From assembly GCA_001563335.1 (NCBI GenBank), contig LRSL01000041.1, positions 1 to 21,307 of the forward strand: 21,307 nt of DNA, written 5' to 3'. Below, piece by piece: positions 1,004-21,128 of this stretch (positions are counted from its first letter, which is position 1; every line of letters begins with the position of its first letter). Both the position numbers and the translations under genes were made by a program. This DNA comes from Candidatus Thorarchaeota archaeon SMTZ1-45 (GTDB taxonomy: Archaea; Asgardarchaeota; Thorarchaeia; Thorarchaeales; Thorarchaeaceae). The notes beneath the pieces were generated by a model. That model searched no databases, was not told the origin of the DNA, and saw nothing but the letters and a program-made list of their open reading frames with translations.

Positions 1004-1028
1004 AGAATTCCTCCATATATTTCCTTAA

Positions 1029-1676
1029 TCAGTTTTTTACAAGCTTTTTGACTAGACTGACTGCTGTTACTGCATCACCAGCCCAGCCATCAGCTTCTAT
1101 CTCATCAGACCATTCTTGAGTGGTGGGAGCACCACCAATAATGACTTTCACGTTTCCCCTAAGACCAGCTGCCTTAAGCTTCTCAATCACAGCCTTTTGC
1201 GCGGGCATTGTTGCAGTAAGAAGCGACGATAAACCAAGCACATCCGGTTTGTATTCCTTGACCTTATCAACAAAGGTCTCTGATGAAACATCTTCACCAA
1301 TATTAAAGACTTCAAAACCCTCAGCTTCTAATAAGGTACCCACTATGTCTTTTCCTATACTATGAATATCACCCTCAACCGTACCAATAATCACTTTTCC
1401 TTCGGATTTCATCTCCATTTTTGATTCTTTGATCACTGGAAGAAGCACTGACATTCCTGCTTTCATAGCATCGCCAGCCATGACAAGCTCTACAAGAAAA
1501 ACTTCTCCTTGACTGAATAGGTCACCCACTGCTTTGACACCCTTGGCTAAACCATTTGTAATAGCTTCCAAGGGAGGGATGTTTTCCTCAAGAGCTTTCT
1601 TTGCAAACTCAACAGATTTCTCAGAATCTCCTTCCATGACAGCAGCTTTTAGTTCTTCAAGAATAGAAGAAGTCAT
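1029..1676 (-). CDS. Methyltransferase cognate corrinoid (B12-binding) protein, MttC/MtbC-like
   Basis: N-terminal four-helix cap followed by GTVEGDIHSIGKDIV (DxHxxG cobalamin motif), GLSSLLT and IIGGAP; GGAGGAG RBS at about 1684-1690; 25 bp from the MttB-like gene. Confidence 0.95.
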   Translation of the reverse strand: MTSSILEELKAAVMEGDSEKSVEFAKKALEENIPPLEAITNGLAKGVKAVGDLFSQGEVFLVELVMAGDAMKAGMSVLLPVIKESKMEMKSEGKVIIGTVEGDIHSIGKDIVGTLLEAEGFEVFNIGEDVSSETFVDKVKEYKPDVLGLSSLLTATMPAQKAVIEKLKAAGLRGNVKVIIGGAPTTQEWSDEIEADGWAGDAVTAVSLVKKLVKN

Positions 1677-1813
1677 TCCAAATCTCCTCCTCTAACATGT
1701 CCTGATGGACAATCTTCATCTACGGAATTGCCTACTTATATCTCTACTCGTGGAAGTTAATAAATAGGAGAATCTGAGATTTAATATGCTTTATACAAAA
1801 GTGGCTCTTGAGC

Positions 1814-1847
1814 AAAATAAAGAGAAGCCTGAGGTTATCCTCAGGCT
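1814..1847 (-). terminator. Hairpin plus pyrimidine/U tract after the permease gene
   Basis: Perfect 9-bp inverted repeat AGCCTGAGG-ttat-CCTCAGGCT (1826-1847), 10 nt past the permease stop, followed on the minus strand by TCTCTTTATTTT. Confidence 0.7.
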
Positions 1848-1856
1848 AATAATCTA

Positions 1857-3437
1857 TTATTCTGGCGATAGTGAGGTGTAGATTGCATCCATGTCTATAT
1901 TCTGCTTTTGCATTCGTCTGGCAAAGTAGACGAACCATAACGCTGAGAATCCATATTGCACACACATCGATATGATCGATAGAAATGCGGCTCCCTGAAA
2001 GAATCCAATCAGCAGGAACAACGCTGTTGGAAGCATTATGACTCCTATCCATGACATTAGAGCAATTCCTAAGAATTCAGGTTGTCGTCTGATACTTCCT
2101 TCATATAATGGTCGTCTCAAGAACGGTAATTGTAATGCAGCCATTGATTGGAAAATCATCTCTATACCCCAGAGGCCTACTAAGGATGTCACCACAGCCA
2201 AGAATCCACTAAGACCAGGAACAGCATATGCAAATGCGAATGGTGCTCCAAACAAGAAGTAGTAGAGGATTGCATATGTGGGAGTGTGGTATTTTGAAAG
2301 CTTTCCGAAGAGTGAAGGCATCATCCTATCAAGCGAGGCTTGGAAGAATCCTCTAGTGACCCATGCCATATTTATCGGAGTAGCAGTCAAACCAATAACA
2401 ACTGGCGATAGTAATATCCATCCGGAGATCACGGGGTTTCCTGCAAGAACTGCAGTCATAGTCCCAAGGCCTCCTTGAAATACTCCTGTTTGCGTTAGAT
2501 TTCCAGTCGCTGCTGCCACTGCGTATTCACTTGAGAATGTCCCGAAAGTTCCCTGGAATAGCCAGGCTCCTCCTGCAAGCAAACCAGCTAGAATAAGACC
2601 ACCAAGTATCTGTGAAAGAACTAGGTTCTTCGCTGGATCAGCGACTTCTCCACCATAGAGCAGTATGAGATATGGCCATGTCAGTCCTATGGGCCAGATT
2701 GTTGCCAAAAGGGTCATTTCCAGACTAAACGCAGGCGCTGCATATCCTGCTGCAGCGGCGACGGTTTGAACTTCTGTATAAGCTCCAGCACCCCAGACCG
2801 CATCCCAGCGGCCAGATACTGCACTAGCTGGAGTTGTCGCTAGTACCACAAGTGCCAAAACCCAGCCAATTGTTGAGAACAATCCACCCGCCATCTGTAT
2901 TCTCGGTTCCATCTTTAATAATGGCCCAAGATAGGCGATGATTGAAAACAAGGCCATCAATCCTATTGATACTGCAACCAAAGCCATTGGATTCGCTGTT
3001 GAGAAGGTGACACCTAAAGATTGCATACCCGGGTTATTTGTCACTGCACCCCATTGAGCGAATGCGGCACCCAAGAATACGAGGAACAGATAGAACTCAC
3101 TCGTCTTGATAATTGGGTTAGCAATTATGCCACGCCAAACCGCTATTGTACCTGCAACAGGATTGAAACCCCTTGCTGAGATCTGGTAGAGACCCGAAGA
3201 ACGCGGCATGGCCATCGACAGTAATGTCATCATTACTGTGTAGATAAGCATGAATAACATACCTATTCCCCAAGTTGCCCCAGCATCAATTCCGGGATAC
3301 ATGTCCTGAAGGATGCCGACAAATAGCCATTGATATGTTCCTAGGCTTGCACCTAGAATTGCAAATAGGGATGTCCATGTACCGAAATACTTGGTCAACC
3401 CTGATGTCGGTCGAAGAAATAGTACTTCTGACATCAT
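1857..3437 (-). CDS. APC-superfamily amino acid/amine permease
   Basis: 526 aa with about 12 hydrophobic segments; FLRPTSGLTK N-terminus, AMPRSSGLYQ (APC 'MPRsGGxY' motif), YGGEV in TM6 and DRMMPSLFGKLSKYHTP (APC 'DrxlPxxFxklxxxxTP'). Confidence 0.9.
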   Translation of the reverse strand: MMSEVLFLRPTSGLTKYFGTWTSLFAILGASLGTYQWLFVGILQDMYPGIDAGATWGIGMLFMLIYTVMMTLLSMAMPRSSGLYQISARGFNPVAGTIAVWRGIIANPIIKTSEFYLFLVFLGAAFAQWGAVTNNPGMQSLGVTFSTANPMALVAVSIGLMALFSIIAYLGPLLKMEPRIQMAGGLFSTIGWVLALVVLATTPASAVSGRWDAVWGAGAYTEVQTVAAAAGYAAPAFSLEMTLLATIWPIGLTWPYLILLYGGEVADPAKNLVLSQILGGLILAGLLAGGAWLFQGTFGTFSSEYAVAAATGNLTQTGVFQGGLGTMTAVLAGNPVISGWILLSPVVIGLTATPINMAWVTRGFFQASLDRMMPSLFGKLSKYHTPTYAILYYFLFGAPFAFAYAVPGLSGFLAVVTSLVGLWGIEMIFQSMAALQLPFLRRPLYEGSIRRQPEFLGIALMSWIGVIMLPTALFLLIGFFQGAAFLSIISMCVQYGFSALWFVYFARRMQKQNIDMDAIYTSLSPE

Positions 3438-6114: not shown

Positions 6115-6630
6115 TCATTTTTTCATTTTGGTGATGATAACAGTACAGAATTCTCCGCCCTTCTGAAGGTCAGTTTCTCCTATTTCTGGAGGGGTCTGGG
6201 CTTGGAGTTCTGGATTCCAGCCCTCAACAAATCCATTGTCAAAAAGCTCCAGAATTGGGCAAACTGTTTCAATGTAGGAACTCGATAACCCTTCATCATT
6301 GAAAGCTGGTATTAGAGTAGGTACGGGACATCTACGCCAATGGATGACTGCTCTTTCTTCGGATATTTCAATGATTTCCGGATTAAATACACTGGTTCCT
6401 CCGAAAAGTTCTCCAAGTGTGACTAAATCATTCTTCCCAATTGCCTTTGCAGCATTCTTTCCTGCGACAAAACCAGCATCATAGTTTGCTTTCTTAATGT
6501 CCTCTAGAATCTCATCACCATATTTATCAGGCAACCTATGGATGAGGTATGAAACTATTAAGCACCTTGTGGCAATCTCTCCAGCAACAAGTTCGTTGCA
6601 TAACTCCCAAGACAATTCATCGTTTGACAA
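6115..6630 (-). CDS. V4R / L-2-amino-thiazoline-4-carboxylic acid hydrolase-like small protein
   Basis: Pattern RAVIHWRRCP...VCPILELFDNGFVEGWNPEL...LQKGGEFC (CP...C...D...GxxxC), typical of the V4R/ATC-hydrolase fold; TTG start with GAGGTT RBS; 23 bp downstream of the dehydrogenase. Confidence 0.6.
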   Translation of the reverse strand: MSNDELSWELCNELVAGEIATRCLIVSYLIHRLPDKYGDEILEDIKKANYDAGFVAGKNAAKAIGKNDLVTLGELFGGTSVFNPEIIEISEERAVIHWRRCPVPTLIPAFNDEGLSSSYIETVCPILELFDNGFVEGWNPELQAQTPPEIGETDLQKGGEFCTVIITKMKK

Positions 6631-8188: not shown

Positions 8189-9385
8189 TCAATCTTCAGG
8201 AAAGTAGTCTGATTCAAGGATTTCAGAATCTACAAGTCCTGCTGAAACAGCCATGATCTCTGCGATGTCAAGTACTCTTGTGTCCAAATCTGCTTCGTAA
8301 AAACCATGAGTCAGATTCATCTCACAGGCTGGACAAATTGTTGTCAATAACTCGGCTTCAGTTTCAACGAAATCTCGAATTCGTTCGTCTGCCACCCGTT
8401 GAGAATAGTCTGGAAACATAATCTTGCATCCACCACCACCCCCACAGCAGAAAGCATGCTCTCGGTTTCTAGACATCTCAGTGAACTCTATTCCTGGAAT
8501 TGAATTAAGTATAGCTCGTGGAGGATCATAGATATCTCGGTAACGTCCAATTTCACAAGGATCATGATATGTGATCTTCTTGTTGACGGGGTATTTGAAA
8601 TTCAACTTCTTTTGGTCAATTATCTCTAGTAAGACCTCGCTAGTATGACGAATTCTGATTGGTAACTTTTCCATTCCAAGAAGATGAGGATACTCTTCAT
8701 CAAAAGCTCTAAAGCAACTGGGGCAAGGTGTTATGATTTCCTTGACTCTACGACTCTGCAGTTTTTTCAAATATGCTTCAGCATATTCCTTAGCATTCTC
8801 CATCTTTCCGGTGACCCAGTAAGGAGTACCACAGCATTTTTGATCATCACCTAAGAAATCAAGTCGATAACCTGCTGCTTGAAGAAGACGAACAAGTATG
8901 TTTGTCTTCTCCTTAAAACGATGGCTGGCGAGACATCCAGGATAGAATAGGGTTCCTGAACCCTCTTTGAATTCGAGTTCCTTGGCCCACCTGTTATGCT
9001 CTTTAGGGGGATCTGCAAAGATATTTCCGGAACTTGTAACCGTAGCGGCCATATTCGCTCCAGCTTCAGGAATTTGAACTCCTTGCTCAACGAAGTCTTG
9101 ACGCATTGCTTTTGTAATCTCAATGACATCAATTTGAGCCGCTTTCTTGCATTCCTCTCTACAACGTCCACACATGAAACATCCAAAGATTCTTTCTGCA
9201 AGGTCTTCAGAGTATTCAAGATTTCCCTCAAGGATTGCCCTCGCAATAGCCATTCTACCTCTTGCTGTTGAAGATTCCCAGTGTTGTGTAAATATCTCAG
9301 GACAACGGTCATTGTAGTCAAATCCTCGACAAAACTCACATCTCCCGCAAGCATAGATCATATCTTTGTATTGTTCAATTCTCAT
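8189..9385 (-). CDS. Fe-S oxidoreductase, HdrD/GlcF-like (2x[4Fe-4S] plus two CCG domains)
   Basis: CGRCEFC...CP and CFMCGRCREEC; YPGC...CCG...CPSC; YHDPC...CCGGGGG...CPAC. The ATG overlaps the upstream stop (TGATG); the ORF track uses GTG 9388. Confidence 0.92.
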   Translation of the reverse strand: MRIEQYKDMIYACGRCEFCRGFDYNDRCPEIFTQHWESSTARGRMAIARAILEGNLEYSEDLAERIFGCFMCGRCREECKKAAQIDVIEITKAMRQDFVEQGVQIPEAGANMAATVTSSGNIFADPPKEHNRWAKELEFKEGSGTLFYPGCLASHRFKEKTNILVRLLQAAGYRLDFLGDDQKCCGTPYWVTGKMENAKEYAEAYLKKLQSRRVKEIITPCPSCFRAFDEEYPHLLGMEKLPIRIRHTSEVLLEIIDQKKLNFKYPVNKKITYHDPCEIGRYRDIYDPPRAILNSIPGIEFTEMSRNREHAFCCGGGGGCKIMFPDYSQRVADERIRDFVETEAELLTTICPACEMNLTHGFYEADLDTRVLDIAEIMAVSAGLVDSEILESDYFPED

Positions 9386-10767
9386 CACAATTCCTCCTCT
9401 GGGATGAAAATTCCACGTTGCAGGATGTTCTTTGGATCAAGTGTCTTTTTTAGGGTCTTGAGCAGACGGTAGTAACCAGTGTCCCGCTCAGCTACAAATC
9501 TACGGAGACCATCTCGTCCACCAATACCGTAAGGAACCACGGGTCCATTGAGAGTGATTTCATCAATCTCATCTGCCATCTTAACAAGTTCCTTCCAATC
9601 ATCGGGTTCTCTATAGTTGGTAACCATGAAAGCAAGCCAATCTCTCGGGAGAATTTGTCCACCAAAACCAGCTTTGGTATATCCTCGTTTTTGGATTACT
9701 TCCTCTCTCCAAACCTTATACAGAAAAGTGATATCGTCAATCCTAAGAGACCCTGCTCCGAAGAAATGCCATACTCCAGTATTGAATAAGTCAGCTAATC
9801 CAGTGAGTATTCTTCCAAAATAATCATCTGCTGGAGCACGGTCACCAATCTCTCCTCCAAGTTCTTTGATCTTCTCGATGATCTTCTTTTTTCGATGATC
9901 AACAATCTCCTGCTCGTAGCCAAATATATCCATCATCAAGAAAAAGACATCAGGTGCTGAAGGGTCAACCCAGAGATATATCCCCTGCATATACTCGTCA
10001 CCGACATGTCTGTTGATGAAGTGCCCAAATTCAATGACATCATCAAGTGTCTTCATTGTTGCTGTGAGTCGTTCCGAAATGTCAGTTACAGGTCGTATTC
10101 GTAGTGAGAGTTCTGTACAGACACCTAGAATTCCTTCCGCACCGATAAACATGCCAGCTAGATCAGGTCCAAGGCACTGACGTTTGAATTTTCCTGCGCT
10201 TGGCCAAGCTGCAGACCCCGTTTCCACTATGTCACCATTTGGTAAGACCATCTCTAGAGCGATTATATCCTGATTTCCATGGAAACCAAACTTGGCTGTT
10301 GAGTGTGGTCCGCCACCTGCTTTCATGACCGATCCTCCAACAGTCATTGCAGGTCCCCCTGCTTCACTGCAAAGGTACGTCAATCCTTTTTTACGTAATT
10401 CTCGATCTAGCTTAGCCCATGTGCAGTTGGGTTGCACACTAGCAACGAGATCACGCTCGTTTATTTCCAAGACCTTATTCATACGCCCTAAATCAAGCAT
10501 AATACCTGGTTCCTGAGGTAGATAAGCATCCCAGTGGGAAGTACCTCCGCCTCTAAGGTATACAGGATATTCATGGTCATTCGCTATTCTTAGAATAGCT
10601 TGAATCTCCTCCTTGGTTTCGGGCATAACAACATGGGTTGGCATCTTCTGCTCTGCGGGACTTAAATCACGACTATATGGAATCAAGTCAAAATCTCTAT
10701 CAGTTACACGACTCGGGCTAACAACATCCTGTAGAAGAGCAGTAACCTTCTTCATGTCGACCATCAT
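9385..10767 (-). CDS. FAD-binding oxidoreductase (GlcD/D-lactate dehydrogenase/VAO superfamily)
   Basis: PTHVVMPETKEEIQAIL, RGGGTS, TVGGSV, GPDLAGMFIGAEGILGVCTE and DPKNILQRG. Start placed at ATG 10767 (GGAGAG RBS at 10772-10777) rather than TTG 10818. Confidence 0.9.
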   Translation of the reverse strand: MMVDMKKVTALLQDVVSPSRVTDRDFDLIPYSRDLSPAEQKMPTHVVMPETKEEIQAILRIANDHEYPVYLRGGGTSHWDAYLPQEPGIMLDLGRMNKVLEINERDLVASVQPNCTWAKLDRELRKKGLTYLCSEAGGPAMTVGGSVMKAGGGPHSTAKFGFHGNQDIIALEMVLPNGDIVETGSAAWPSAGKFKRQCLGPDLAGMFIGAEGILGVCTELSLRIRPVTDISERLTATMKTLDDVIEFGHFINRHVGDEYMQGIYLWVDPSAPDVFFLMMDIFGYEQEIVDHRKKKIIEKIKELGGEIGDRAPADDYFGRILTGLADLFNTGVWHFFGAGSLRIDDITFLYKVWREEVIQKRGYTKAGFGGQILPRDWLAFMVTNYREPDDWKELVKMADEIDEITLNGPVVPYGIGGRDGLRRFVAERDTGYYRLLKTLKKTLDPKNILQRGIFIPEEEL

Positions 10768-10903
10768 CGTTCTCTCCAATGACACTGTTGAAATTGTCAT
10801 AGCAGTGTCAAACTTCAAGAGTAGTAGCCACCGATTAATTAAAGACTACGGTCAGAACCCAATTTAACTTGAGATTATAATTTCATAAAATCAGGGATGA
10901 CGC

Positions 10904-12031
10904 ATGAAGCCACGAGAGAGATTCCACGCTGCTGTGAACCATGAAGAACCAGATAGGGTGCCTTTGGATTATTGGACCACTCCACAAGCATATGAGAACC
11001 TTCGAGATTACTTAGATATCACAGCATCTGAAACTCAAGACTGGGGAATTATGTCTACATGGAAAACATCAGAAGAATTGTTGAAACGACTCAATTTAGA
11101 CTTTAGACGAGTCTATATGAAAACCGCTGTAGGTTTCAAACCTCAACCACTCCCTGATGGATCTGTTGAAACGGAGTTCAAGTGTGGCATGACATTGATA
11201 GGTGGATACTATGAGGTCACTTATTATCCATGGGCTGAGTTCACTGAAGTTGAACAAGTTGAAGAATTTGAGTGGATTGATCCAGATGACCCATCAAGAA
11301 TGGATGGAGTGCTAGAGTGGGCAAGATACCTCCATGAAGAAACAGATTATGCAGTTGTAGGTATGGTAGGTGGACCATGGGGAGTTTTTGAGGTTGTAGC
11401 ACACTACATGAGAGGGTTTGATAAATTCCTAATCGATCTTCTAAAACGACCGAATCTTGCAGAAGCTATGATGGAAAAAAGCATGAAACTTGCAATAGAA
11501 ATGAATCGTGTCCTTCTAGATGAAGTTGGAGAATATTTGGACATAGTACAAGTTGGGGATGATCTGGGTCATCAGGATGGACTCCTCATAAGCCCAAGGA
11601 TTTATCGTAACATGGTAAAACAACGACACAAGAAGATCTATAGTGACATCCATAGACGTGCACCACATGTCAAGATCCTCTATCACTCATGCGGTGCAGT
11701 AGAGCCCATGATTGAAGATTTGATAGAGGTCGATGTAGATATTTTGAATCCAATACAACCACTAGCAAAGGGAATGGACTCTGCACAACTCAAGAGAAAA
11801 TATGGCGATAGATTGACTTTCCATGGAGGAATAGACTTGCAACATGCCATGTCAGCCCAAGGTACAATTGAGGATGTTCGAGCAGAGGTTGATAGACGAG
11901 TAAAAGATCTTGCACCAGATGGCGGCTACATTCTTGCTCCTGCACACAACATTCAGCCAGAATCGACTCCAGAAAAAATCTTGGAACTTTATGATTATGC
12001 TACTAAGAAAGGCATGTACCCGATAGATTGA
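10904..12031 (+). CDS. Uroporphyrinogen decarboxylase / MtaA-CmuA (MT2) superfamily protein
   Basis: MKPRERFHAAVNHEEPDRVP N-terminus, GDDLG, YHSCG, LNPIQP, FHGGID and GGYILAPAHNIQ; this family commonly accompanies corrinoid methyltransferase systems. Confidence 0.88.
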   Translation: MKPRERFHAAVNHEEPDRVPLDYWTTPQAYENLRDYLDITASETQDWGIMSTWKTSEELLKRLNLDFRRVYMKTAVGFKPQPLPDGSVETEFKCGMTLIGGYYEVTYYPWAEFTEVEQVEEFEWIDPDDPSRMDGVLEWARYLHEETDYAVVGMVGGPWGVFEVVAHYMRGFDKFLIDLLKRPNLAEAMMEKSMKLAIEMNRVLLDEVGEYLDIVQVGDDLGHQDGLLISPRIYRNMVKQRHKKIYSDIHRRAPHVKILYHSCGAVEPMIEDLIEVDVDILNPIQPLAKGMDSAQLKRKYGDRLTFHGGIDLQHAMSAQGTIEDVRAEVDRRVKDLAPDGGYILAPAHNIQPESTPEKILELYDYATKKGMYPID

Positions 12032-12036
12032 AGCAC

Positions 12037-12705
12037 TCAAGGAATAGGTCTCTCTTTGTGAAGATCATGAGGATCTTTGCCTTCATCTAGTTTGTCTGCC
12101 CACCAATTGTCAGTTGCAACAACCTGTTCAGCATGTTTAAGGACTTCTTCTATTCGATCCGCGGGAATCACAACGATTCCATCACCGTCCCCGAAAATCA
12201 AATCTCCAGGATGAACGCTAACTCCACCACAGACAATGGGATTCTGGACAGACTCCATATTTAATCGACCCCTCATAGTTCCTGGATGACGACCTCTAGC
12301 AAAAACTGTGAAGTTCATGGCATCGATTTCATGTATGTCTCTTGAGGTGCCATCTACCACTGCTCCTTTAACACCTATAGGAATCCCAATTTTTGTCATA
12401 ATCTGACCCCAAGCTGAACAGTCTATAGCTCCAGCCATATCAATGACAATTATATCACCCTCTACAGCATTGGTAGCTAGACTCATGAAAACATCCAGTT
12501 GTTTCTCATCATATGGACGATTAGCTGGTGATCGTGTCAGCTTTCCAGTTCTAGCAAATCCTGCCATCCGCTTATTCTTAGTGAGAGGCAAAATACCTCG
12601 GTCCATACACACTTGTCCAAGTCCTATTTCATCTGCTGCATCAGATAATGCGGCTACATACAGTTTCATTGTTCGTTCAATTATAGAATTTCGATTAGTC
12701 GTCAT
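12037..12705 (-). CDS. RraA family protein / 4-hydroxy-4-methyl-2-oxoglutarate (HMG) aldolase-like
   Basis: AALSDA, GDIIVID, SAWGQIM, GAVVDGTSRDI (catalytic RD retained) and VHPGDLIFGDGDGIVVIP. Confidence 0.9.
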   Translation of the reverse strand: MTTNRNSIIERTMKLYVAALSDAADEIGLGQVCMDRGILPLTKNKRMAGFARTGKLTRSPANRPYDEKQLDVFMSLATNAVEGDIIVIDMAGAIDCSAWGQIMTKIGIPIGVKGAVVDGTSRDIHEIDAMNFTVFARGRHPGTMRGRLNMESVQNPIVCGGVSVHPGDLIFGDGDGIVVIPADRIEEVLKHAEQVVATDNWWADKLDEGKDPHDLHKERPIP

Positions 12706-12842
12706 AATTGTCGCTCCTCTTTGGTGTTATTTTGGATCAGCATGAAGTTACTATAGTAGGCTTTCAAGATTATACACGTATCTTAAAATTCCTGTGAAAT
12801 TGAAAACTTTATGCAGCAAATCACCATAGTCCATTAGATAGG

Positions 12843-12851
12843 TTATATAAA
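12843..12851 (+). promoter_or_regulatory. Archaeal TATA box for the aminotransferase-GRE unit
   Basis: TTATATAAA ending 38 nt upstream of ATG 12889, in the divergent intergenic region. Confidence 0.55.
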
Positions 12852-12888
12852 CTGGGAATTTCTCCGCAGGCTCTTAGGGGTAATAGTA

Positions 12889-14049
12889 ATGCTTGCTGAG
12901 AGAAATGTAGATGTTCCTGCGAGTGAAATCCGTAAAATCTTCAACAAGATAATTGGTAGAACTGATGTCTTTGATATGACTGTCGGGATTCCTGATTTTG
13001 ATACTCCAGAACATATCAAAGAAGCCGCAAAGAAGGCTCTCGATGATGGGTTCACTCGGTACACTCACAATGCAGGTTATATCGATGTGAGAGAAGCCCT
13101 CGCTCAGAAACTCAAACGTGACAATAATATTGAAGCAAATCCTGAAACCGAGCTGATATGTACAGCAGGTGGAATGGGAGCTCTTGTTCTTGCAAACATG
13201 GTTATCATAAATCCAAGAGAGGAGGTGATCTATCCAGACCCAGGATTTGTGAGTCATTATGCACACATTAAGCTAGCTGGAGGTGTGCCAGTTCCAGTTC
13301 AGCTAAAGAAGGAACATCGGTTCGGTTTCCTAGCAGAGGATATTGAAAGCAAGATTACTTCCAAGACAAAGATGATAGTACTTAATTCACCAAATAATCC
13401 GACTGGTGGAGTTATTTCCAATATGGAATTGAAAAGGATTGCAGAATTGTGTATTGAGAAGGATTTGTACGTGATTGCTGATGAAGCATATGAGAAATTT
13501 AGATACGTAGAAGAAGATCCTTTGTTCATTGGTTCACTCCCAGGTATGAAGGAGAGAACCGTTTCAATATTCTCACTTTCTAAGACCTACGCAATGACCG
13601 GGTGGCGTATCGCTGTCGCTACAGGATCCAGCGAGCTAATTGGTGCAATGACAAAACTCCAGGAACATATCATAGCTATGCCAACATCAATAGCCCAAAA
13701 AGCAGCAGCAGCTGCAGCAATTGGTCCCCAAGATTGTATCAGCGAGATGTTGCAGACATTTCGACGACGCCGGGACTTAATAACAAAGGGATTAAACGAT
13801 ATCGAAGGAGTTGAATTAGAACCTCCTGGAGGCGCCTTCTACGTATTCCCTGATGTGTCTGCATATGGTATAAAATCATATGATCTCGTTCACAAACTCC
13901 TAAATGAGACGAAAGTCGTCACAGTCCATGGAACAGCTTTTGGAAAATATGGGGAAGGATTCCTCAGGCTTTGTTATGCTGTTTCTACTGAGAGGATTAA
14001 TGAAGCACTCAGCAGATTAGATGGTTATCTACCAAAATTATTGCATTAA
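12889..14049 (+). CDS. PLP-dependent aminotransferase class I/II (aspartate aminotransferase-like)
   Basis: GIPDFDTP, LNSPNNPTG, ADEAY, SLSKTYAMTGWRIA (PLP lysine), GAFYVF and GFLRLCYA. Confidence 0.95.
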   Translation: MLAERNVDVPASEIRKIFNKIIGRTDVFDMTVGIPDFDTPEHIKEAAKKALDDGFTRYTHNAGYIDVREALAQKLKRDNNIEANPETELICTAGGMGALVLANMVIINPREEVIYPDPGFVSHYAHIKLAGGVPVPVQLKKEHRFGFLAEDIESKITSKTKMIVLNSPNNPTGGVISNMELKRIAELCIEKDLYVIADEAYEKFRYVEEDPLFIGSLPGMKERTVSIFSLSKTYAMTGWRIAVATGSSELIGAMTKLQEHIIAMPTSIAQKAAAAAAIGPQDCISEMLQTFRRRRDLITKGLNDIEGVELEPPGGAFYVFPDVSAYGIKSYDLVHKLLNETKVVTVHGTAFGKYGEGFLRLCYAVSTERINEALSRLDGYLPKLLH

Positions 14050-14098
14050 TTGTGTCAGATGCGAAAAGTAATGAATAGAAAAATCATTAGTGCGAAGG

Positions 14099-16411
14099 AT
14101 GACGTCCCGTAGTAAGCGCTTAAAGCAAAGAATGCTTGATGCCGAACCAACGATATCATCAGAGAGAGCTGTTCTCTTTACAGAATATGTTAGAGATAAT
14201 TTGTCTGAGCCAACAATACTGAAGAATGCAGGTGCGTTTGCTTATGTTCTTGATAATATAACAATCAGAATAGAGCCCGATGAACTTATCGTTGGGAACA
14301 TGGGACCAACTCCTCGATCCTGCCAAGTATTTCCAGAGTATAGCTGGAATTGGATTGAAGAAGAGTTAGACAGATTTGACAAACGCAGAACCGAGCGATT
14401 CTCAATAAGTGAAGAGGACAAACAGAATCTCCGGAGAGTGTTCCAATTCTGGAAGGGAAAGAGCACATCTGAAATTGCGGGGATAAGGATGCCACAAGAA
14501 TCGATAAAGGCATCAAAAGCAGGCCTATTCACGATTGGGGCTCCAGGTACAGGAATCGGACATGTTATTGTTGATTATGAAAAAGTGCTGCGGAAGGGAT
14601 TCCTCAGAATTCTAGACGAAATTGAAGGGATAGCAGGTGACTATTATGACGCAGTTCGTACTGAGATCATTGCAGTCCTCAGATATGTGGAAAGATTCTC
14701 TCATCTAGCGTCAGATATGGCAAAAAAAGAATCTGACAAAAAAAGGAGGGAAGAACTGAAAGAGATTGCTAGAATCTGTATGAAAGTGCCAGCTGAACCT
14801 GCAGGTTCATTTCATGAAGCGCTTCAATCTTTCTGGTTTATTCATCTCCTAATCCAGACAGAGTCTAATGGTCATTCAATGTCCACTGGAAGATTTGATC
14901 AGTACATGTTTCCATTTTACAAGAGCGATATCAAGAAAGGAAGAATCACCCAAGCTCATACGCTCGAACTTCTTGAGGCTCTTTGGGTAAAAATGACCTC
15001 TCTCATCAAGATACGAAATGAATACTATAGTATAGCATTTGCAGGTCATCCAATGTTCCAGAACCTCACAATAGGAGGACAGAACGAAGATGGATCTGAT
15101 GCATCGAATGATCTTGCTAGATTAATCCTTCAAGCGACTGCTAATATTAGAGTGACTCAACCGAGTGTTTCTTTCCGGTGGCACAAGAATACACCGGAAG
15201 ACCTCAAACTACAGGTGGTTGATGTAATATCTCAAGGACTAGGAATGCCAGGTCTCTTTAATGATGATGCAATCATACCAATGATGATTGAGAAGGGAAC
15301 TCTCCCATCAGAGGCCAATAATTACTCTATACTTGGATGTGTTGAACCAATAATTGGGGGAAAATCTGATCCAAGACAAAATATAGGGTATGTGAATCTA
15401 CCGAAGATACTTGAAGTAACACTGAACAATGGTAGAAATCCAAAAACAGGTGAACTAGTGGGAAAAGAAACCGGAGATCCTCGAGATTTCAAATCATTTG
15501 ATAAGTTGTGGTTAGCATTCAAGGAACAGATCGATTACACCATAGAGCTTTTGACTAATGCAGACAGAATTGCTGCAGAAGTTCTTGCAGAAAACACACC
15601 AACTCCCTTCATATCATCACTTCTTGAGGGATGCAATGAGTCAGGAAAGACAATGCAAGAAGGAGGAGCGATTTACAATTCAGGCGGAATCATGGGAGTT
15701 GGAATTGCTATCGTGGCGGACTCACTTGAAGTCCTAAGAAAGTTCATCTTCGAGAGGAAAGAGCTGACGATGGATGAGATGCTTCAGATTCTTGCTGACA
15801 ACTATGATGGTCATGAAGAACTGAGAATCAAGTTTGAGAATGATCCATCAAAGTATGGTAATGACATCGAGAGAGTGGACTTTATTGCAAGAGATACTGG
15901 AAGAGCTTTCTGCAATTCAATTCAGAGCAGGATGACAACAAGAAATGGCCCATATCATGGAGCTCTGTTCTCAGTTTCTATGTACATACCACAAGGCGAA
16001 GTTCTTGGAGCAACACCAGATGGAAGAAAAGCTGGTTATATGATTTCTGATGGAGTTTCACCGACTCAGAACAGAGATGTTAATGGACCAACAGCAGCGA
16101 TGAAATCTGTTGCTCGTTTGGATCATGCATTATGTTACAACGGTACACTATACAATATGAAATTCACACCAGACTTCTTTGATACTGAGTCGAGGAGAAA
16201 GAAATTCATCAGTATGGTTGACGCATACTTTGGAATGGGAGGTTTCCACGTACAATATAATGTGGTTTCAAGAGAAACCCTTGAAGATGCAAAAGTAAAT
16301 CCTCTGCAGCATAGAGACCTTATTGTTCGTGTTGCTGGATATAGTGCTTATTTCATCGAACTTGATCCCTTTGTTCAGGACGAGGTGATCGCTAGGACAG
16401 AGTTCTCTTGA
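14099..16411 (+). CDS. Glycyl radical enzyme, PFL2/diol-dehydratase-like, substrate unknown
   Basis: Cys loop SILGCVEP (single Cys, codon 15338), Gly loop LIVRVAGYSAYF (Gly codon 16337), plus GRFDQY, ATPDGR and FHVQYNVV. The ORF track starts at GTG 14090; in-frame ATG at 14099. Confidence 0.95.
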   Translation: MTSRSKRLKQRMLDAEPTISSERAVLFTEYVRDNLSEPTILKNAGAFAYVLDNITIRIEPDELIVGNMGPTPRSCQVFPEYSWNWIEEELDRFDKRRTERFSISEEDKQNLRRVFQFWKGKSTSEIAGIRMPQESIKASKAGLFTIGAPGTGIGHVIVDYEKVLRKGFLRILDEIEGIAGDYYDAVRTEIIAVLRYVERFSHLASDMAKKESDKKRREELKEIARICMKVPAEPAGSFHEALQSFWFIHLLIQTESNGHSMSTGRFDQYMFPFYKSDIKKGRITQAHTLELLEALWVKMTSLIKIRNEYYSIAFAGHPMFQNLTIGGQNEDGSDASNDLARLILQATANIRVTQPSVSFRWHKNTPEDLKLQVVDVISQGLGMPGLFNDDAIIPMMIEKGTLPSEANNYSILGCVEPIIGGKSDPRQNIGYVNLPKILEVTLNNGRNPKTGELVGKETGDPRDFKSFDKLWLAFKEQIDYTIELLTNADRIAAEVLAENTPTPFISSLLEGCNESGKTMQEGGAIYNSGGIMGVGIAIVADSLEVLRKFIFERKELTMDEMLQILADNYDGHEELRIKFENDPSKYGNDIERVDFIARDTGRAFCNSIQSRMTTRNGPYHGALFSVSMYIPQGEVLGATPDGRKAGYMISDGVSPTQNRDVNGPTAAMKSVARLDHALCYNGTLYNMKFTPDFFDTESRRKKFISMVDAYFGMGGFHVQYNVVSRETLEDAKVNPLQHRDLIVRVAGYSAYFIELDPFVQDEVIARTEFS

Positions 16412-16481
16412 CAATAGGTCGACAGATTTAACATTTCCATGAGATAGTATGCTCTTGTTAAACCTTGATGAGTTGAGAAAC

Positions 16482-17477
16482 ATGAGTTATGACGTAGTCA
16501 CCTTTGGAGAAGTAATGCTTCGCCTCTCTCCGCCTGACTTCAAGAGGTTTGAGCAGACTGAGAGATTTAATGCAAATGCAGGTGGAGCAGAGATGAATGT
16601 CGCTGTAGCTTGTGCGCGACTAGGACTGAAATCTGCATATGTCACTAAATTGGGAGACAATTCTATCGGACATTTCATACGGAACAAAGCTCGTGAACAT
16701 GGAGTTGATACATCACACATCCTGTGGGATGCAGGTAGTAGATGTGGTGTTTACTTTGTAGAATTTGGTGCAGCGCCACGTACAAACCGGGTCATCTATG
16801 ACCGTAAAGAGTCTGCAATAAGTAAGATAAAACCGGGAGAGGTTGATTGGAAAAAAATCCTGAAGGGAACTAAGCTATTCCACACAAGTGGAATTACACC
16901 TGCTCTCAGTTTAAGCTGTGCAGACGCAACTGATGAAGCTCTCAAGATAGCAAAAGAACAGGATGTCAAAGTTTCATACGATGTAAACTACAGAGGAAAA
17001 CTCTGGACTCCAAAAGAAGCGCAAAAATTCACAGAACCGGCCTCTGAGTATATTGATATTTTAATCACTACCGAGGAGGACACCAAGGTTGTCTATGGAA
17101 TTGAAGGAAAAGACTACGAAGATGTTGCTGCAAAACTGATTGACACATTTGGATTTGAGGTTGTGGTCATTACACTCAGGGAAACACCTTCGGTCTGGTT
17201 CAATAAGTGGTCAGTTTTCGCATATTCCAATGGAAAAGTGTTCAAAAGCCCAGTCTATGATGTCGAAATTGTGGATCGATTAGGTGGAGGCGACTCTTGT
17301 AGTGCAGGTTTTATCTATGGATATCTTGAGCTAAAAGATTTACAGAAAGCGGTTGATTTTGGCTCAGCATTCTCAGCACTGAAGCACTCAGTTCCTGGAG
17401 ACCTTGCTTTTGTTTACAAATCAGAGGTTGAAGAACTCATCAAAGGTCGCCAACGCGGTTTGCGTATTGAAAGGTGA
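16482..17477 (+). CDS. kdgK: PfkB-family sugar kinase, 2-keto-3-deoxygluconate kinase type
   Basis: VVTFGEVMLRLSP, GGAEMNVA, VIYDRKESA, SGITPAL, DVNYRGKLW and DRLGGGDS, as in KDG kinases. Start placed at ATG 16482 (ORF track 16449). Confidence 0.88.
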   Translation: MSYDVVTFGEVMLRLSPPDFKRFEQTERFNANAGGAEMNVAVACARLGLKSAYVTKLGDNSIGHFIRNKAREHGVDTSHILWDAGSRCGVYFVEFGAAPRTNRVIYDRKESAISKIKPGEVDWKKILKGTKLFHTSGITPALSLSCADATDEALKIAKEQDVKVSYDVNYRGKLWTPKEAQKFTEPASEYIDILITTEEDTKVVYGIEGKDYEDVAAKLIDTFGFEVVVITLRETPSVWFNKWSVFAYSNGKVFKSPVYDVEIVDRLGGGDSCSAGFIYGYLELKDLQKAVDFGSAFSALKHSVPGDLAFVYKSEVEELIKGRQRGLRIER

Positions 17478-17483
17478 AACGAT

Positions 17484-18134
17484 ATGTGGACGAAGGAAAC
17501 AGCAATGAAATTAATCTATGAAACTGGTTTCATTCCAATTATCCGTGTTGAGTCCACGGACATTGCTTTCAAAGTAGCTGAAGCATTTTTGGAAGGCGGA
17601 ATCAATATCATAGAGGTCACAATGAGTGTTCCTGGCGCAATCGATGTAGTCAAGCAGCTTATCGAAAATTATGGTGATAAAGTTCTGATAGGAACGGGAA
17701 CTGTTCTAGATGGCATAATGGCAGAGGAAGTTATTAAAGCTGGAAGTGAGTTCATTGTGAGTCCGAACTACTCCCAAGATTTGATAGAAACTGCTAAGAA
17801 GCACTCCAAACCAATAATTCCAGGAGCTCTCACACCGACTGAGATCTACAATGCGTATTCGATGGGAGCAGACGCAGTGAAAGTATTTCCATGTGGGAAC
17901 ATAGGAGGGGCAGACTACATAAAAGCCATTAGAGCTCCGTTACCAGATATCCCTCTTGTTCCGACTGGAGGGGTTGATCTTGAAACAGCAGGACCAATGC
18001 TTGATGCTGGAGCTTATGCTCTTGGTGTGGGTGGAGCAATTACAGACAAAAAGGCAATCAAGGAAAGAAAATATGAAGTGATTACTGAGAATGTTAGGAA
18101 ATTCCTTGATATTGTGAAGAAGTATAGAAGCTAA
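17484..18134 (+). CDS. eda: KDPG/KHG aldolase (class I)
   Basis: IPIIR, IEVT, IGTGTVL, FIVSP, PGALTPTE, VKVFP (Schiff-base Lys) and PTGGV; 6 bp after kdgK with a GGTGA RBS. Confidence 0.93.
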   Translation: MWTKETAMKLIYETGFIPIIRVESTDIAFKVAEAFLEGGINIIEVTMSVPGAIDVVKQLIENYGDKVLIGTGTVLDGIMAEEVIKAGSEFIVSPNYSQDLIETAKKHSKPIIPGALTPTEIYNAYSMGADAVKVFPCGNIGGADYIKAIRAPLPDIPLVPTGGVDLETAGPMLDAGAYALGVGGAITDKKAIKERKYEVITENVRKFLDIVKKYRS

Positions 18135-18188: not shown

Positions 18189-18515
18189 ATGACACAAGAC
18201 TTACTTGAACTCATGCGAGAAAGAATTGCCATTGGCCTTGAACGAGAGAAGACTTTGGAAGCTATTGAGGGATGGGAACGAACAGCACATCTAAGCTTGA
18301 AAGAAGGAGCGGAATACCATTTCATAGTCAAAGATAACAATATCACTGTGCATGAAGGTTCTATAGAAAACCCAGACATGAGAATTCAAAGTGATGAAGA
18401 TACAATTAGAAAATTGTTTCTTGAGGAGATGAGTGCAGCCTCAGCCCTCCTGAAACGTAAGTTGAAAGTGAAGGGTTCAGCTTCTGACCTGATGAAAATC
18501 AGACACATCTTCTAA
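18189..18515 (+). CDS. SCP2 sterol/lipid-binding domain protein
   Basis: 108 aa; ITVHEGSIENPDMRIQSDEDT...LKRKLKVKGSASDLMK matches the SCP2 pattern (vxeGxxxxpDxxi...GklKvkG). Confidence 0.8.
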   Translation: MTQDLLELMRERIAIGLEREKTLEAIEGWERTAHLSLKEGAEYHFIVKDNNITVHEGSIENPDMRIQSDEDTIRKLFLEEMSAASALLKRKLKVKGSASDLMKIRHIF

Positions 18516-18543: not shown

Positions 18544-19950
18544 GTGGATAAGAAGATAGTGACAGAACTATCCAAAGTTGTTGGAAAAGAATACATCTCA
18601 ACGAAAAAGGATGTCCTCATAGCATACTCAACATCTGCTTCAATGAGTTATGAAAATGTCATTCCAGATGCTGTTGTGAGACCAGGGACAACAGAAGAAG
18701 TTTCTAGAGTTCTAAAGATAGCAAATAAATACAAAATCCCTGTGACTCCACGATGTGGTGGTTCAAGTCTCCAAGGGGAGGTGATTCCGCATTCGAATAG
18801 TCTTGTTATAGAATTGATGCGACTTGAAGATATTGTCTTGTACAAAGATCTAAGGTCAGTGACTGTAGGGGCTGGAGTTACATTTGGTAAACTTGACAAA
18901 TATCTGAACAAACATGATTTATGGATTCCATTCTATCCAGGTTCTGCTCTAGCTGCAACATTGGCTGGTAATGTTGCTGTAAACGGAGCAGGTTTTGGGT
19001 CTGGAGTATACGGATGTATAGCAGAACTCGTTATGGGTCTCGAAGTTGTTTTACCTGATGGTACAATTATCCAAACAGGTTCTGAGGCAAACCCGAACTC
19101 ACCAGGACCTTTCTTGCGTTATGCTTTTGGTCCAGACCTTACAGGGCTTTTCATTGGCTCTCTTGGTAGTTTTGGAATCATCACGAAGGTTTCTATAAAG
19201 ACACACAAACGGATGAGGCACATTGATTATAACACCTACGGATTTAATGAGGTTGAGAAAGCAGAGAGATTCCTATTGAAGTTGAAGGAAAATGATATCA
19301 ATGCAGTATGGGTAGCGCTTTATGAAGGCCGTGTACTCGAATTCTTTCTTGAAATGGTGGGTGAAGAGTATGGCGTCCCACAACATGATTGGCCAACTTT
19401 CACTGTATCTGTAGCCATTGGTCATGTAAGGAAGGACCAGTTACAGAGTGACATGAAGATGGCAGGCAGTATATGCGAACAACTTGGAGGTTATGTTATT
19501 GGGGTTAAAGAGTTACCAAAGGCAGAATGGGAGGATCGCATGAGAGAGCTTGCTCGCTCATCATATGTTCATGGATGGCACTGGCGTATTCTATATCACC
19601 ATCAACCACCAATTAGCTGGCATAAGTCAATGGATGCAATTTGGTCGGTTATGGATGAGTATGGTGTCTTGGGACACACTGCGGGATTTCTTTCAGGTCA
19701 TGGAAGTTATAACTGGTATCCTCAAATCTACTTTGATCCACAGGATAAGAATGAGGAAGAAAGAGTTAAGGAGGCTCATAGAGAGCTCGCACGACGTCTC
19801 TTCAAGACTGGAGCAGTCCCTTTCAAACTAGCTGAATACTGGAAAGATGCGATTGAAGGTATGGATGACTATATGGCATTTCTCAAACTAATCAAGAAGA
19901 CAATTGATCCAAATAACATAATGAACCCAGGAGTACTAGGAGGAATTTAG
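18544..19950 (+). CDS. FAD-binding oxidoreductase (GlcD/VAO superfamily), second paralogue
   Basis: PDAVVRPGTTEEVSRVL, RCGGSSL, ATLAGNVAVNG, GPDLTGLFIGSLGSFGIITK and DPNNIMNPG; GTG start with GGAGG RBS. Confidence 0.92.
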   Translation: MDKKIVTELSKVVGKEYISTKKDVLIAYSTSASMSYENVIPDAVVRPGTTEEVSRVLKIANKYKIPVTPRCGGSSLQGEVIPHSNSLVIELMRLEDIVLYKDLRSVTVGAGVTFGKLDKYLNKHDLWIPFYPGSALAATLAGNVAVNGAGFGSGVYGCIAELVMGLEVVLPDGTIIQTGSEANPNSPGPFLRYAFGPDLTGLFIGSLGSFGIITKVSIKTHKRMRHIDYNTYGFNEVEKAERFLLKLKENDINAVWVALYEGRVLEFFLEMVGEEYGVPQHDWPTFTVSVAIGHVRKDQLQSDMKMAGSICEQLGGYVIGVKELPKAEWEDRMRELARSSYVHGWHWRILYHHQPPISWHKSMDAIWSVMDEYGVLGHTAGFLSGHGSYNWYPQIYFDPQDKNEEERVKEAHRELARRLFKTGAVPFKLAEYWKDAIEGMDDYMAFLKLIKKTIDPNNIMNPGVLGGI

Positions 19951-21128
19951 TGATAACAGAGATAGACCTTGATGAACTTGTCGAAAACCTGATGCAATGT
20001 CGCAGGTGTGGAATTTGCAGAAATGCGGTATTCGAAGAAAGAGGTTTTGATGGAGTCTGTCCAGTCTGGAGAAACTCTTCTGGGTTTGAAACCAGTTTCA
20101 TGCGTGGTCGGATTCAAGTAGCATTGGCTCTGTTGGAGGGAGTCCTTGAAAAGACTCCAGAGAATGCTGAGGCACTTTATACCTGTACTCTCTGCGGGAA
20201 CTGCACTGAAATTTGCGCCGCAGAGTTTGACCCAGCAGAGTGTCTTGAGAAAGTTAGAGCTGTTCTAAATGATATTCCAAATGATGTTCGAGATTCTATT
20301 GCAGAAATGATCATGCAATATGATAATCCATATGAAGAGAATAGTCAGCTCAAACGGAATTGGGTTGAGGAAGTTGGATTTGAGATAACATCAACGGGAG
20401 AGGTTCTCTATTACGTTGGATGTACAGCTGGAATTAGACTTCCTAATATTGCTAAATCCACCGTGAAGATATTGAAAGCAGCGGACATCGATTTTGCGGT
20501 CCTTGAACATGAACCCTGTTGCGGCAGTGTTATGCTCCGAACAGGTAGAATTGAGAACGCACTCACTAATGCGAAGAGGTTTGCTGATATCATTCAAAAG
20601 TCTGGAGCAAAGAGGATCATAATTACTTGTGCAGGTTGTTTGAAAACTTTGACAGAGGATTATCCCAAGATGGGAGTTGAACTTCCAGAGGTCATCCATA
20701 TAACTGAATTCTTAAGGGATATAATTGAAAGTAAGAAACTCAAACTGAAATCATTGGGGAAAGGAATCAAGGTGACATACCACGACCCCTGTCATCTTTC
20801 GAGAGCCCTAGGATTCTATGATGAACCACGGGAAATAATCAAGGCAATCCCAGATATTAAATTGGTAGAGATGGAAACTAATAGAGTAACTGCTATGTGT
20901 TGTGGAGCAGGAGGAGGACTTCGCTCATATGACTCGGAGCTTTCAAAGAAGATAGCAGCGGATAGAGTGAAAAGTGCAGTTGCCATTGATGTAGAAATGA
21001 TTGTGACTGCTTGCCCCTTCTGCGAGCATAATCTCACGGCAGGCGCAGATATAATCGACCAATCTATGCGTGTTGTTGATGTTGTAGACCTAGTAGCTGA
21101 AAGTCTAACATTGAAAGGAAATGGGTAG
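19950..21128 (+). CDS. Fe-S oxidoreductase, HdrD/GlcF-like, second paralogue
   Basis: CRRCGIC...CP and CTLCGNCTEIC; YVGC...CCG...CAGC; YHDPC...CCGAGGG...CPFC. GTG start overlaps the upstream TAG by one base. Confidence 0.92.
   Translation: MITEIDLDELVENLMQCRRCGICRNAVFEERGFDGVCPVWRNSSGFETSFMRGRIQVALALLEGVLEKTPENAEALYTCTLCGNCTEICAAEFDPAECLEKVRAVLNDIPNDVRDSIAEMIMQYDNPYEENSQLKRNWVEEVGFEITSTGEVLYYVGCTAGIRLPNIAKSTVKILKAADIDFAVLEHEPCCGSVMLRTGRIENALTNAKRFADIIQKSGAKRIIITCAGCLKTLTEDYPKMGVELPEVIHITEFLRDIIESKKLKLKSLGKGIKVTYHDPCHLSRALGFYDEPREIIKAIPDIKLVEMETNRVTAMCCGAGGGLRSYDSELSKKIAADRVKSAVAIDVEMIVTACPFCEHNLTAGADIIDQSMRVVDVVDLVAESLTLKGNG

Follow-up and report, generated by a model that had tools for sequence, protein, structure and literature searches.

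Glycyl radical enzymes (GREs) are oxygen-sensitive enzymes, among which the B12-independent glycerol dehydratase of C. butyricum (GDH, 1r8w/1r9d) and the propanediol dehydratase of R. inulinivorans (PDH, 5i2a) are encoded beside aldehyde-processing genes. HpfG, the (S)-2,3-dihydroxypropanesulfonate dehydratase, is a GDH-like GRE that dehydrates a diol bearing an anionic group. On sugar derivatives, the E. coli GRE isomerases YbiW and PflD are described as converting 1,5-anhydroglucitol 6-phosphate and 1,5-anhydromannitol 6-phosphate to 1-deoxyfructose 6-phosphate, which then enters an aldolase step, setting a precedent for breaking an ether C-O bond beside a carbinol (PMC13450708). The semi-phosphorylative Entner-Doudoroff (ED) and De Ley-Doudoroff-type routes of sugar-acid breakdown are described as running via a 2-keto-3-deoxy acid, a PfkB-family kinase and cleavage by an Eda-family aldolase, with the acid made by an enolase-superfamily or IlvD/Edd enzyme; an example is the breakdown of 3,6-anhydro-D-galactonate by Zobellia DauB-DauC-DauD (PMC5698469). 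According to a June 2026 review, all function-characterized pyruvate formate-lyase (PFL)-like GREs are bacterial (PMC13450708). Here we analyze a 21,307-nt stretch of archaeal DNA (the window), i.e., contig C41 of a 3.54-Mb Thorarchaeota-type Asgard metagenome-assembled genome (MAG; 119 contigs, 88% complete), in which a GRE gene holds the cluster slot of such a dehydratase, next to genes for a sugar-acid kinase and an Eda aldolase.

Positions 12889-18134 of the window carry four co-oriented genes on the + strand, assigned by open reading frame (ORF) calling and Pfam/NCBIfam searches. They encode a class-I (Asp/aromatic-type) pyridoxal phosphate-dependent aminotransferase (12889..14049, 386 aa; Pfam Aminotran_1_2, E 2e-74), the GRE (14099..16411, 770 aa from the ATG at 14099, with an alternative GTG opening at 14090), a PfkB-family kinase of the 2-keto-3-deoxygluconate/2-keto-3-deoxygalactonate (KDG/KDGal) type (KdgK; 16482..17477, longest ORF from 16449; PfkB E 1e-46), and a 2-keto-3-deoxy-6-phosphogluconate/2-keto-4-hydroxyglutarate (KDPG/KHG) aldolase (Eda; 17484..18134; PF01081 E 8e-46; TIGR01182 185.9 vs. 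a cut-off of 156.05). The set is conserved and lineage-specific, its uncharacterized GRE belongs among the GRE eliminases, and the arrangement is more than chance, because 36 of 41 related archaeal loci show the identical order. We tentatively propose, in line with the first-pass annotation of this DNA, that radical beta-elimination by the GRE on a sugar acid would yield the 2-keto-3-deoxy acid used by KdgK and Eda, a reading that we favor and hold a shade below probable. It is supported by the gene identities, the catalytic motifs, the isolation of the GRE clade, the genomic coupling and the finding of no conventional dehydratase.

The GRE consists of a PFL-like domain (PF02901, E 3.5e-202) and a C-terminal glycine-radical domain (Gly_radical, PF01228, E 1.8e-33). 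Its glycine motif RVAGY contains Gly750 (P0001 numbering, as for all residues of this protein below), which is invariant in the alignment, as is Cys417, the counterpart of GDH Cys433 and the single cysteine of the loop GCVE (Cys417-Val-Glu419). A GIGH motif gives His158, the counterpart of GDH His164, and the NGHS motif is also kept. A single-Cys Cys-x-Glu loop is named in review passages as typical of GRE eliminases, and by these motifs the predicted protein is of the Cys-x-Glu eliminase type with the eliminase machinery intact, as the first-pass annotation had read from the GCVE loop. Compared with the GRE of a locus 87% identical at the protein level, dN/dS is 0.03, with dS saturated.

The best solved relatives of the GRE are GDH (1r8w, 684 bits), PDH (5i2a, 642 bits) and an unnamed GRE (9rco, 616 bits). 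In a residue alignment numbered from the 1r8w chain, which reproduces Cys433, Glu435 and His164 as quoted in the 2026 review, the GDH residues His164, His281, Ser282, Cys433 and Glu435 are retained, Tyr339 is replaced by Phe as in PDH, Trp445-His446-Asp447 by Arg-Gln-Asn, and Tyr640 by Phe. The Trp-His-Asp (WHD) motif after the Cys loop is retained in GDH, PDH, 9rco, one HpfG-like representative and several bacterial loci. GDH residues Tyr339, Asp447 and Tyr640 are presumably substrate contacts. The GRE clade of the Thorarchaeota-type archaea (Thor clade) has residues of its own, Arg429, Asn431 and Tyr434. The motifs R-[Q/P]-N, GY, FSVSMY and PMFQN occur unchanged in every one of the 36 full-length Asgard GRE ORFs extracted from the loci compared below, and in the window copy. 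With the HypD-like protein of the same genome as a bridge, the Tyr of the clade motif NIGYVN aligns with HypD Tyr450, which is reported to hydrogen-bond the carboxylate of hydroxyproline (PMC7077986); GDH, PDH and the HpfG-like representative have Phe at that position. Our reading of this alignment is that the diol-activating core appears retained, whereas the distal part of the pocket appears remodeled by Arg, Asn, Tyr and Ser, so that it would fit an anionic tail such as a carboxylate. With GDH and PDH the window GRE shares the Cys-x-Glu loop, the His164 equivalent, NGHS and the glycine motif, and likely also the chemistry, i.e., a ketyl radical followed by beta-elimination. It differs from them in being archaeal, in the WHD and Tyr640 replacements, in its position outside their group, in the lack of an adjacent activase gene, and in having a KDG kinase and an aldolase as neighbors instead of aldehyde-processing genes.

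Among NCBIfam models the GRE passes only the broad PFL2-3 subfamily cut-off, and it scores below the cut-offs of all seven equivalog families compared (score/cut-off in bits: HpfG, the second-best NCBIfam match, 611/1000; HypD, 588/1100; CutC, 574/1050; HpsG, 527/1000; indoleacetate decarboxylase, 418/1100; hydroxyphenylacetate decarboxylase, 344/1150; PFL equivalog TIGR01255, 155/994). A word-indexed search returned at least 120 clusters at 71-100% identity. In an exhaustive search of 1.84 billion representatives at 50% identity a single one (72%) exceeds 50% identity and represents the whole clade; the next stands at 42% identity and 655 bits (vs. 1291), and the nearest non-Thor clusters lie at about 41-44%. 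The 10 next-best representatives that were scanned all stay below the equivalog cut-offs, and 58 further ones contain one CutC and one HpfG-like protein (924/1000). A FastTree phylogeny was built from 90 sequences, namely nine Thor members, the two other GREs of the genome, three bacterial loci and the representatives of P0122-P0199 longer than 700 aa, the shorter ones being omitted. In it the Thor GREs form a clade with support 1.0, whose sister (0.994) consists of uncharacterized bacterial GREs (P0122, P0125, P0148 and P0178) and a Desulfobacteraceae locus; the WHD-motif (GDH/PDH-like) group joins further out with weak support (0.51). By the equivalog scores and by its place outside the WHD group the GRE thus falls in none of the characterized clades compared, which leaves this part of the earlier proposal standing.

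Coupling of the GRE to KdgK and Eda was followed by tblastn of the window proteins against 79 loci, of which 41 are Asgard (GRE 66-87% identity; labeled Candidatus Thorarchaeota, Hermodarchaeota or Promethearchaeota among the close relatives) and 38 bacterial (32-42%). KdgK lies directly 3' of the GRE in 36 of the 41 Asgard loci. In 33 of these Eda comes next, the remaining three being cut short by a contig edge, and the aminotransferase is 5' of the GRE in 32 loci. The downstream flank is missing in two of the five other loci (L010 and L027), and in three (L023, L024 and L028) the GRE has a different context, with 2-oxoacid:ferredoxin oxidoreductase and thermosome genes adjoining. Neither KdgK nor Eda was found near the GRE in any of the 38 bacterial loci. 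Among 301 sampled Asgard genomes, GRE orthologues (at least 64% identity) occur in 54, all in one GTDB family (f1, represented by 77 genomes including the window genome), and the best GRE match outside this family is 41%. KdgK orthologues (at least 73%) were detected in 54 of the same 77 genomes. After three mismatches had been resolved by contig-end fragments (G221, locus L072; G233, locus L069; and G200), both genes are present in 55 genomes, GRE alone in one (G287, 66% complete), KdgK alone in none, and neither in 21.

Two genomes of genus g6 show the genes apart. In G281 the GRE is at an alternative locus, aminotransferase, KdgK and Eda are contiguous on another contig, and GRE and KdgK are both kept. 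In G055, with the genes on separate contigs, the GRE has three in-frame stops, KdgK has two, a frameshift disrupts Eda close to the C-terminus, and the adjoining aminotransferase is intact; eight scanned neighbors of the GRE give full-length domain matches. The breaks in G055 are nonsense changes and not indels, making simple long-read error a less likely cause. Synteny, co-occurrence and joint decay tie the GRE tightly to KdgK and Eda in function. The earlier expectation that close homologues co-occur with kdgK/eda therefore holds in 36 of 41 Asgard loci and 55 of 77 family genomes, within a single family, and fails in the bacterial loci.

Three loci deserve mention for their gene content. 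Locus L018, labeled Hermodarchaeota, has the full aminotransferase-GRE-KdgK-Eda set. At L094 (genus g4, G027 C12) a gene for a 1147-aa multi-PAS histidine-kinase-like sensor (9772-13215) stands between GRE and KdgK. The closest KdgK-Eda pair outside f1 (61% and 50% identity) is at L095 (G025 C13, 2598-10956; GTDB family f18), where two HGD-D (2-hydroxyacyl-CoA dehydratase-like) subunits, two BcrAD/BadFG activator ATPases and an HpcH/HpaI aldolase are encoded 5' of the pair; this is another radical-type dehydratase system adjoining KdgK-Eda, seen in a single genome and perhaps there by coincidence.

The window was said to encode neither IlvD/Edd nor an enolase-superfamily sugar-acid dehydratase, and none is present among 20 scanned ORFs of at least 96 aa picked from the ORF list. 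The same was found for the 88% complete genome as a whole: IlvD/Edd, UxuA, GD_AH, KduI and UxaC give no match above cut-off, and the enolase superfamily gives nothing above cut-off, its sole signal being a 21-bit fragment at a contig edge. No conventional KDG-forming type was thus found elsewhere in the genome, and the gluconate dehydratase that marks a semi-phosphorylative ED route, whether of the enolase type or of the IlvD/Edd type, was likewise not encountered. In the family, IlvD/Edd occurs in 6 of 81 genomes (0 of 23 in the genus of the window genome) and strong MR_MLE matches in 23 of 81; weak MR_MLE matches on ORFs of about 435 aa in other family genomes are taken to be enolase itself. 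Enolase-superfamily genes were considered as a hidden dehydratase and rejected: two strong examples score below the NCBIfam sugar-acid dehydratase cut-offs and lie beside peptidase/esterase genes. The Zn-dependent alcohol dehydrogenase (Zn-ADH) of the window was considered as a glucose dehydrogenase that would supply the aldonate; its Glu_dehyd_C match is weak (44 bits), and its closest solved relatives point to threonine and sorbitol dehydrogenases. The sulfoquinovose routes (sulfo-ED and sulfo-Embden-Meyerhof-Parnas) were set aside: the kinase and aldolase found here are of the KDG/KDPG type, and phosphorylation at C6 would be meaningless for a sugar that carries its sulfo group there.

For KdgK, the closest solved relative is the T. 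maritima KDG kinase (2afb, 288 bits, E 8e-85). The protein scores 309 bits against the NCBIfam haloarchaeal KDG/KDGal kinase (cut-off 440) and reaches no equivalog cut-off; it is classed from its sequence as a PfkB-family KDG/KDGal-type kinase. Eda, closest to the T. maritima KDPG aldolase (1wa3, 118 bits), is encoded in a single copy and is the sole family member found in the genome. The aminotransferase is most similar among solved proteins to the Asp/aromatic aminotransferase of P. horikoshii (1gd9/1dju, 313 bits), reaches no NCBIfam equivalog cut-off, and probably handles pyruvate/alanine or aspartate/oxaloacetate, i.e., reactions that would not be specific to this route. Its orthologues (at least 62%) persist in four genomes that have neither GRE nor KdgK, and both loci fetched from these genomes show it alone in an unrelated context. 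Its link to GRE-KdgK-Eda is therefore loose and separable, and the idea that the substrate might be an amino-sugar acid supplied through the aminotransferase is left without support, as the enzyme occurs alone and stays intact where GRE, KdgK and Eda decay.

Because the GRE is kept together with KdgK and Eda, it is the probable source of their keto-deoxy sugar acid. The mechanism proposed here takes the standard eliminase cycle, as given in review passages, and transfers it to a 2,3-dihydroxy acid motif. The glycyl radical would be installed by an activase whose gene lies at another place in the genome; the sole activase above cut-off in the window genome (TIGR02494, 318 bits) is at C19:37923-38897, not adjacent to the window GRE. 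The radical would be transferred to Cys417, and the thiyl would take a hydrogen from the carbinol carbon adjacent to the carboxylate of the sugar acid (C2 if the substrate is an aldonate, C5 if it is a hexuronate). Glu419 would deprotonate the hydroxyl of that carbon and His158 would protonate the leaving group on the neighboring carbon, either a hydroxyl (aldonate/uronate) or possibly an ether oxygen, the latter by analogy with YbiW and PflD. Return of the hydrogen would give the 2-keto-3-deoxy acid, which KdgK would phosphorylate and Eda would cleave to pyruvate and glyceraldehyde 3-phosphate. The substrate class, the regiochemistry and the identity of the GRE product with the kinase substrate are the parts of this scheme that we infer. 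YbiW and PflD resemble it in that a GRE acting on a sugar derivative feeds an aldolase; they differ in being more distant (508 and 490 bits), in their substrates and in the family of the aldolase. In a more special form, which we judge distinctly improbable, the GRE would be a radical cycloisomerase/lyase for sugar acids with an ether or hard-to-eliminate oxygen at C3 (or C4). It might convert 3,6-anhydrogalactonate from red-algal galactan directly to KDGal, or a hexuronate to 5-keto-4-deoxyuronate, and the neighboring URO-D/corrinoid methyltransferases could strip O-methyl groups from the same algal sugars.

Several points weigh against a GRE that forms the keto-deoxy acid. We know of no GRE that acts on a sugar acid, and the proposed reaction lacks a precedent in biochemistry. 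Several enzyme families carry out the alpha,beta-dehydration of aldonates without radicals, so that radical chemistry is unnecessary there, and KDG could also arise with no dehydratase at all, e.g., if a generic reductase acted on 4-deoxy-5-hexosulose uronate. As the genes are mostly adjacent, their joint loss alone tells little, being expected from a single deletion; the linked loci are all confined to one GTDB family, and the synteny may therefore reflect a single origin; and the joint decay in G055 comes from one single MAG. Absence claims are limited by the 88% completeness of the window genome. No activase was found near the GRE in any of the 41 Asgard loci vs. 30 of the 38 bacterial loci. 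The bacterial relatives inspected (L061, L042, L055 and L060), including sister GREs, have activases, major facilitator superfamily (MFS) transporters, aldo-keto reductases, short-chain dehydrogenases/reductases and a GntR regulator nearby and no sugar-acid genes beside them. The role of the aminotransferase is left unexplained.

Most of the remaining weight goes to a different step in the same pathway, with the GRE acting on an anionic vicinal diol or hydroxy acid upstream of KdgK-Eda or in a branch toward them and KDG itself formed by other enzymes, e.g., the nearby Zn-dependent polyol dehydrogenase. The coupling evidence shows shared function and not adjacent steps, the proximal diol-binding residues (His158, NGHS and Glu419) are GDH-like, and a sorbitol/threonine-dehydrogenase-like Zn-ADH gene is nearby in the window and in six loci. 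Most loci, however, are without this Zn-ADH and the searches of the window genome yielded no candidate for the KDG-forming step, and we regard this arrangement as unlikely. A function of the GRE unrelated to KdgK-Eda, in a neighborhood inherited from one ancestor, appears to us rather improbable: in concert with the aminotransferase, the enzyme would have as substrate a hydroxy amino or hydroxy keto acid, or else a diol with a sulfonate or phosphate group. Joint decay has struck GRE and KdgK-Eda at separate loci and left the aminotransferase intact, the aminotransferase is found alone without the GRE, and the HpfG-like representative keeps the WHD motif that the Thor clade lacks, all of which run counter to such a function, although the confinement of the cluster to one family, the APC-type permease and MttB/corrinoid system upstream, and the rank of HpfG as second-best NCBIfam match would agree with it. 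HpfG itself is alike in being a GDH-like dehydratase of an anionic diol and differs in that the window GRE remains below its cut-off.

That the protein is an ordinary B12-independent glycerol or 1,2-propanediol dehydratase seems very improbable, even with GDH and PDH as its best solved relatives and with the PDH-like Phe at the Tyr339 position. Identity to the nearest non-Thor clusters is low, the clade branches outside the WHD group, Trp445, His446 and Asp447 are all replaced, no activase is adjacent, and the window has no microcompartment or aldehyde dehydrogenase genes (the other Asgard flanks were not scanned for them). The labels given to related genes in the literature, i.e., alkyl-/benzylsuccinate synthase (Ass/Bss) for Hermod- and Thorarchaeota GREs in PMC8163825 and PFL in a 2025 preprint, are barely credible for this protein. 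Benzylsuccinate synthase TutD/BssA (4pkc) scores 281 bits, MasD 290 and E. coli PFL 148 vs. 684 for GDH, the PFL equivalog score is far below its cut-off, and the single Cys of the Cys-x-Glu loop is described as eliminase-typical. The window GRE scores 413 bits against A. fulgidus PflD, and the Asgard GREs of PMC8163825 are given there as 336-463 bits against the same protein; as this range brackets 413, the genes labeled Ass/Bss may include this eliminase clade.

Our literature searches found no paper linking a GRE to KDG or KDPG formation, in agreement with the earlier statement that no characterized GRE has this role, and neither "gluconate" nor "keto-3-deoxy" occurs in the text of the 2026 GRE review (PMC13450708). 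If the clade does feed KdgK and Eda, the substrates of GREs would gain a new class and ED-type sugar-acid breakdown a radical entry, and metabolic reconstructions of Thorarchaeota from marine and mangrove sediments would shift from hydrocarbon or formate metabolism to sugar-acid use. If the special case of a cycloisomerase/lyase were true, it would be an archaeal, oxygen-free substitute for enzymes of the enolase type, and the first archaeal PFL-like GRE to be assigned a function.

The gaps within the four-gene run, given earlier as about 49, 70 and 6 bp, keep these values with homologue-supported starts. The aminotransferase-GRE gap is 49 bp to the ATG at 14099, the start used by homologues (770 aa in relatives). 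The GRE-KdgK gap is 70 bp to the ATG at 16482 and 37 bp to the first ATG; the former codon is Met12 of the longest KdgK ORF, homologue alignments begin at residues 8-12, and ATG 16482 is the likely start. The KdgK-Eda gap is 6 bp. No run of five or more T was found between the four genes. A TATA-like box, TTATATAA (12843..12850, +), is seen 39 bp 5' of the aminotransferase ATG, inside the 183-bp divergent spacer between this gene and an RraA-like gene, and is a candidate archaeal promoter for the run. A bacterial-type promoter/terminator scan gave 7 promoter-like sites vs. 15.4 expected and was discarded, the model not being applicable to archaea.

In the family scan, the four genes are followed on the + strand by genes for a small SCP2-fold protein (18189-18515), a FAD-binding GlcD-like oxidase (18544-19950) and a CCG/Fe-S GlcF-like subunit (19950-21128). 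These three accompany Eda on its 3' side in many Asgard loci but not in all, at times separated from it by about 1 kb of inserted DNA, and the GlcD/GlcF-like pair is likely a 2-hydroxyacid dehydrogenase of the lactate or glycolate type. A second, paralogous FAD-oxidase and CCG/Fe-S pair lies at 8189-10818 (-), and some relatives have two tandem FAD subunits, as in GlcDEF. On the other side, genes for a URO-D/MtaA-like methyltransferase (10904-12031, +) and the divergent RraA-like aldolase/oxaloacetate decarboxylase (12037-12705, -) adjoin the aminotransferase gene in most loci. Further upstream are the FAD/CCG oxidoreductase pair, a ThiS/MoaD-like protein and the Zn-dependent dehydrogenase, and furthest upstream several unknown ORFs, an APC-type permease, a corrinoid protein and an MttB-family methyltransferase. 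The last three genes lie at 2-3437 (-), where the window edge cuts the MttB-family gene and the corrinoid protein is MtgC-like. The MttB-family protein scores 316 bits vs. the 525 cut-off of the Pyl-type trimethylamine enzyme, and in several relatives the MttB/corrinoid/permease genes share one conserved block with the GRE cluster. The product of orf171 (6115-6630, -) has no Pfam match, and a small protein encoded next to the RraA-like gene at L094 (5391-5864, -) matches the ATC_hydrolase family.

The window genome encodes two other GREs, and the single C19 activase would have to serve all three. The third GRE (799 aa; L091, C19:37923-41296, -) adjoins this activase near an MFS transporter gene; its best NCBIfam match is PFL2-3 (544 bits, below cut-off) and it is uncharacterized. 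The second (L092, C26:9278-11695, -) stands alone beside ribosomal protein genes, scores above the HypD equivalog cut-off (1259 vs. 1100 bits) and keeps Asp278. It has Cys-Val-Thr in place of the Cys-Val-Glu436 of HypD, whose E436Q variant is reported to be inactive (PMC7077986), and its activity may differ from that of HypD.

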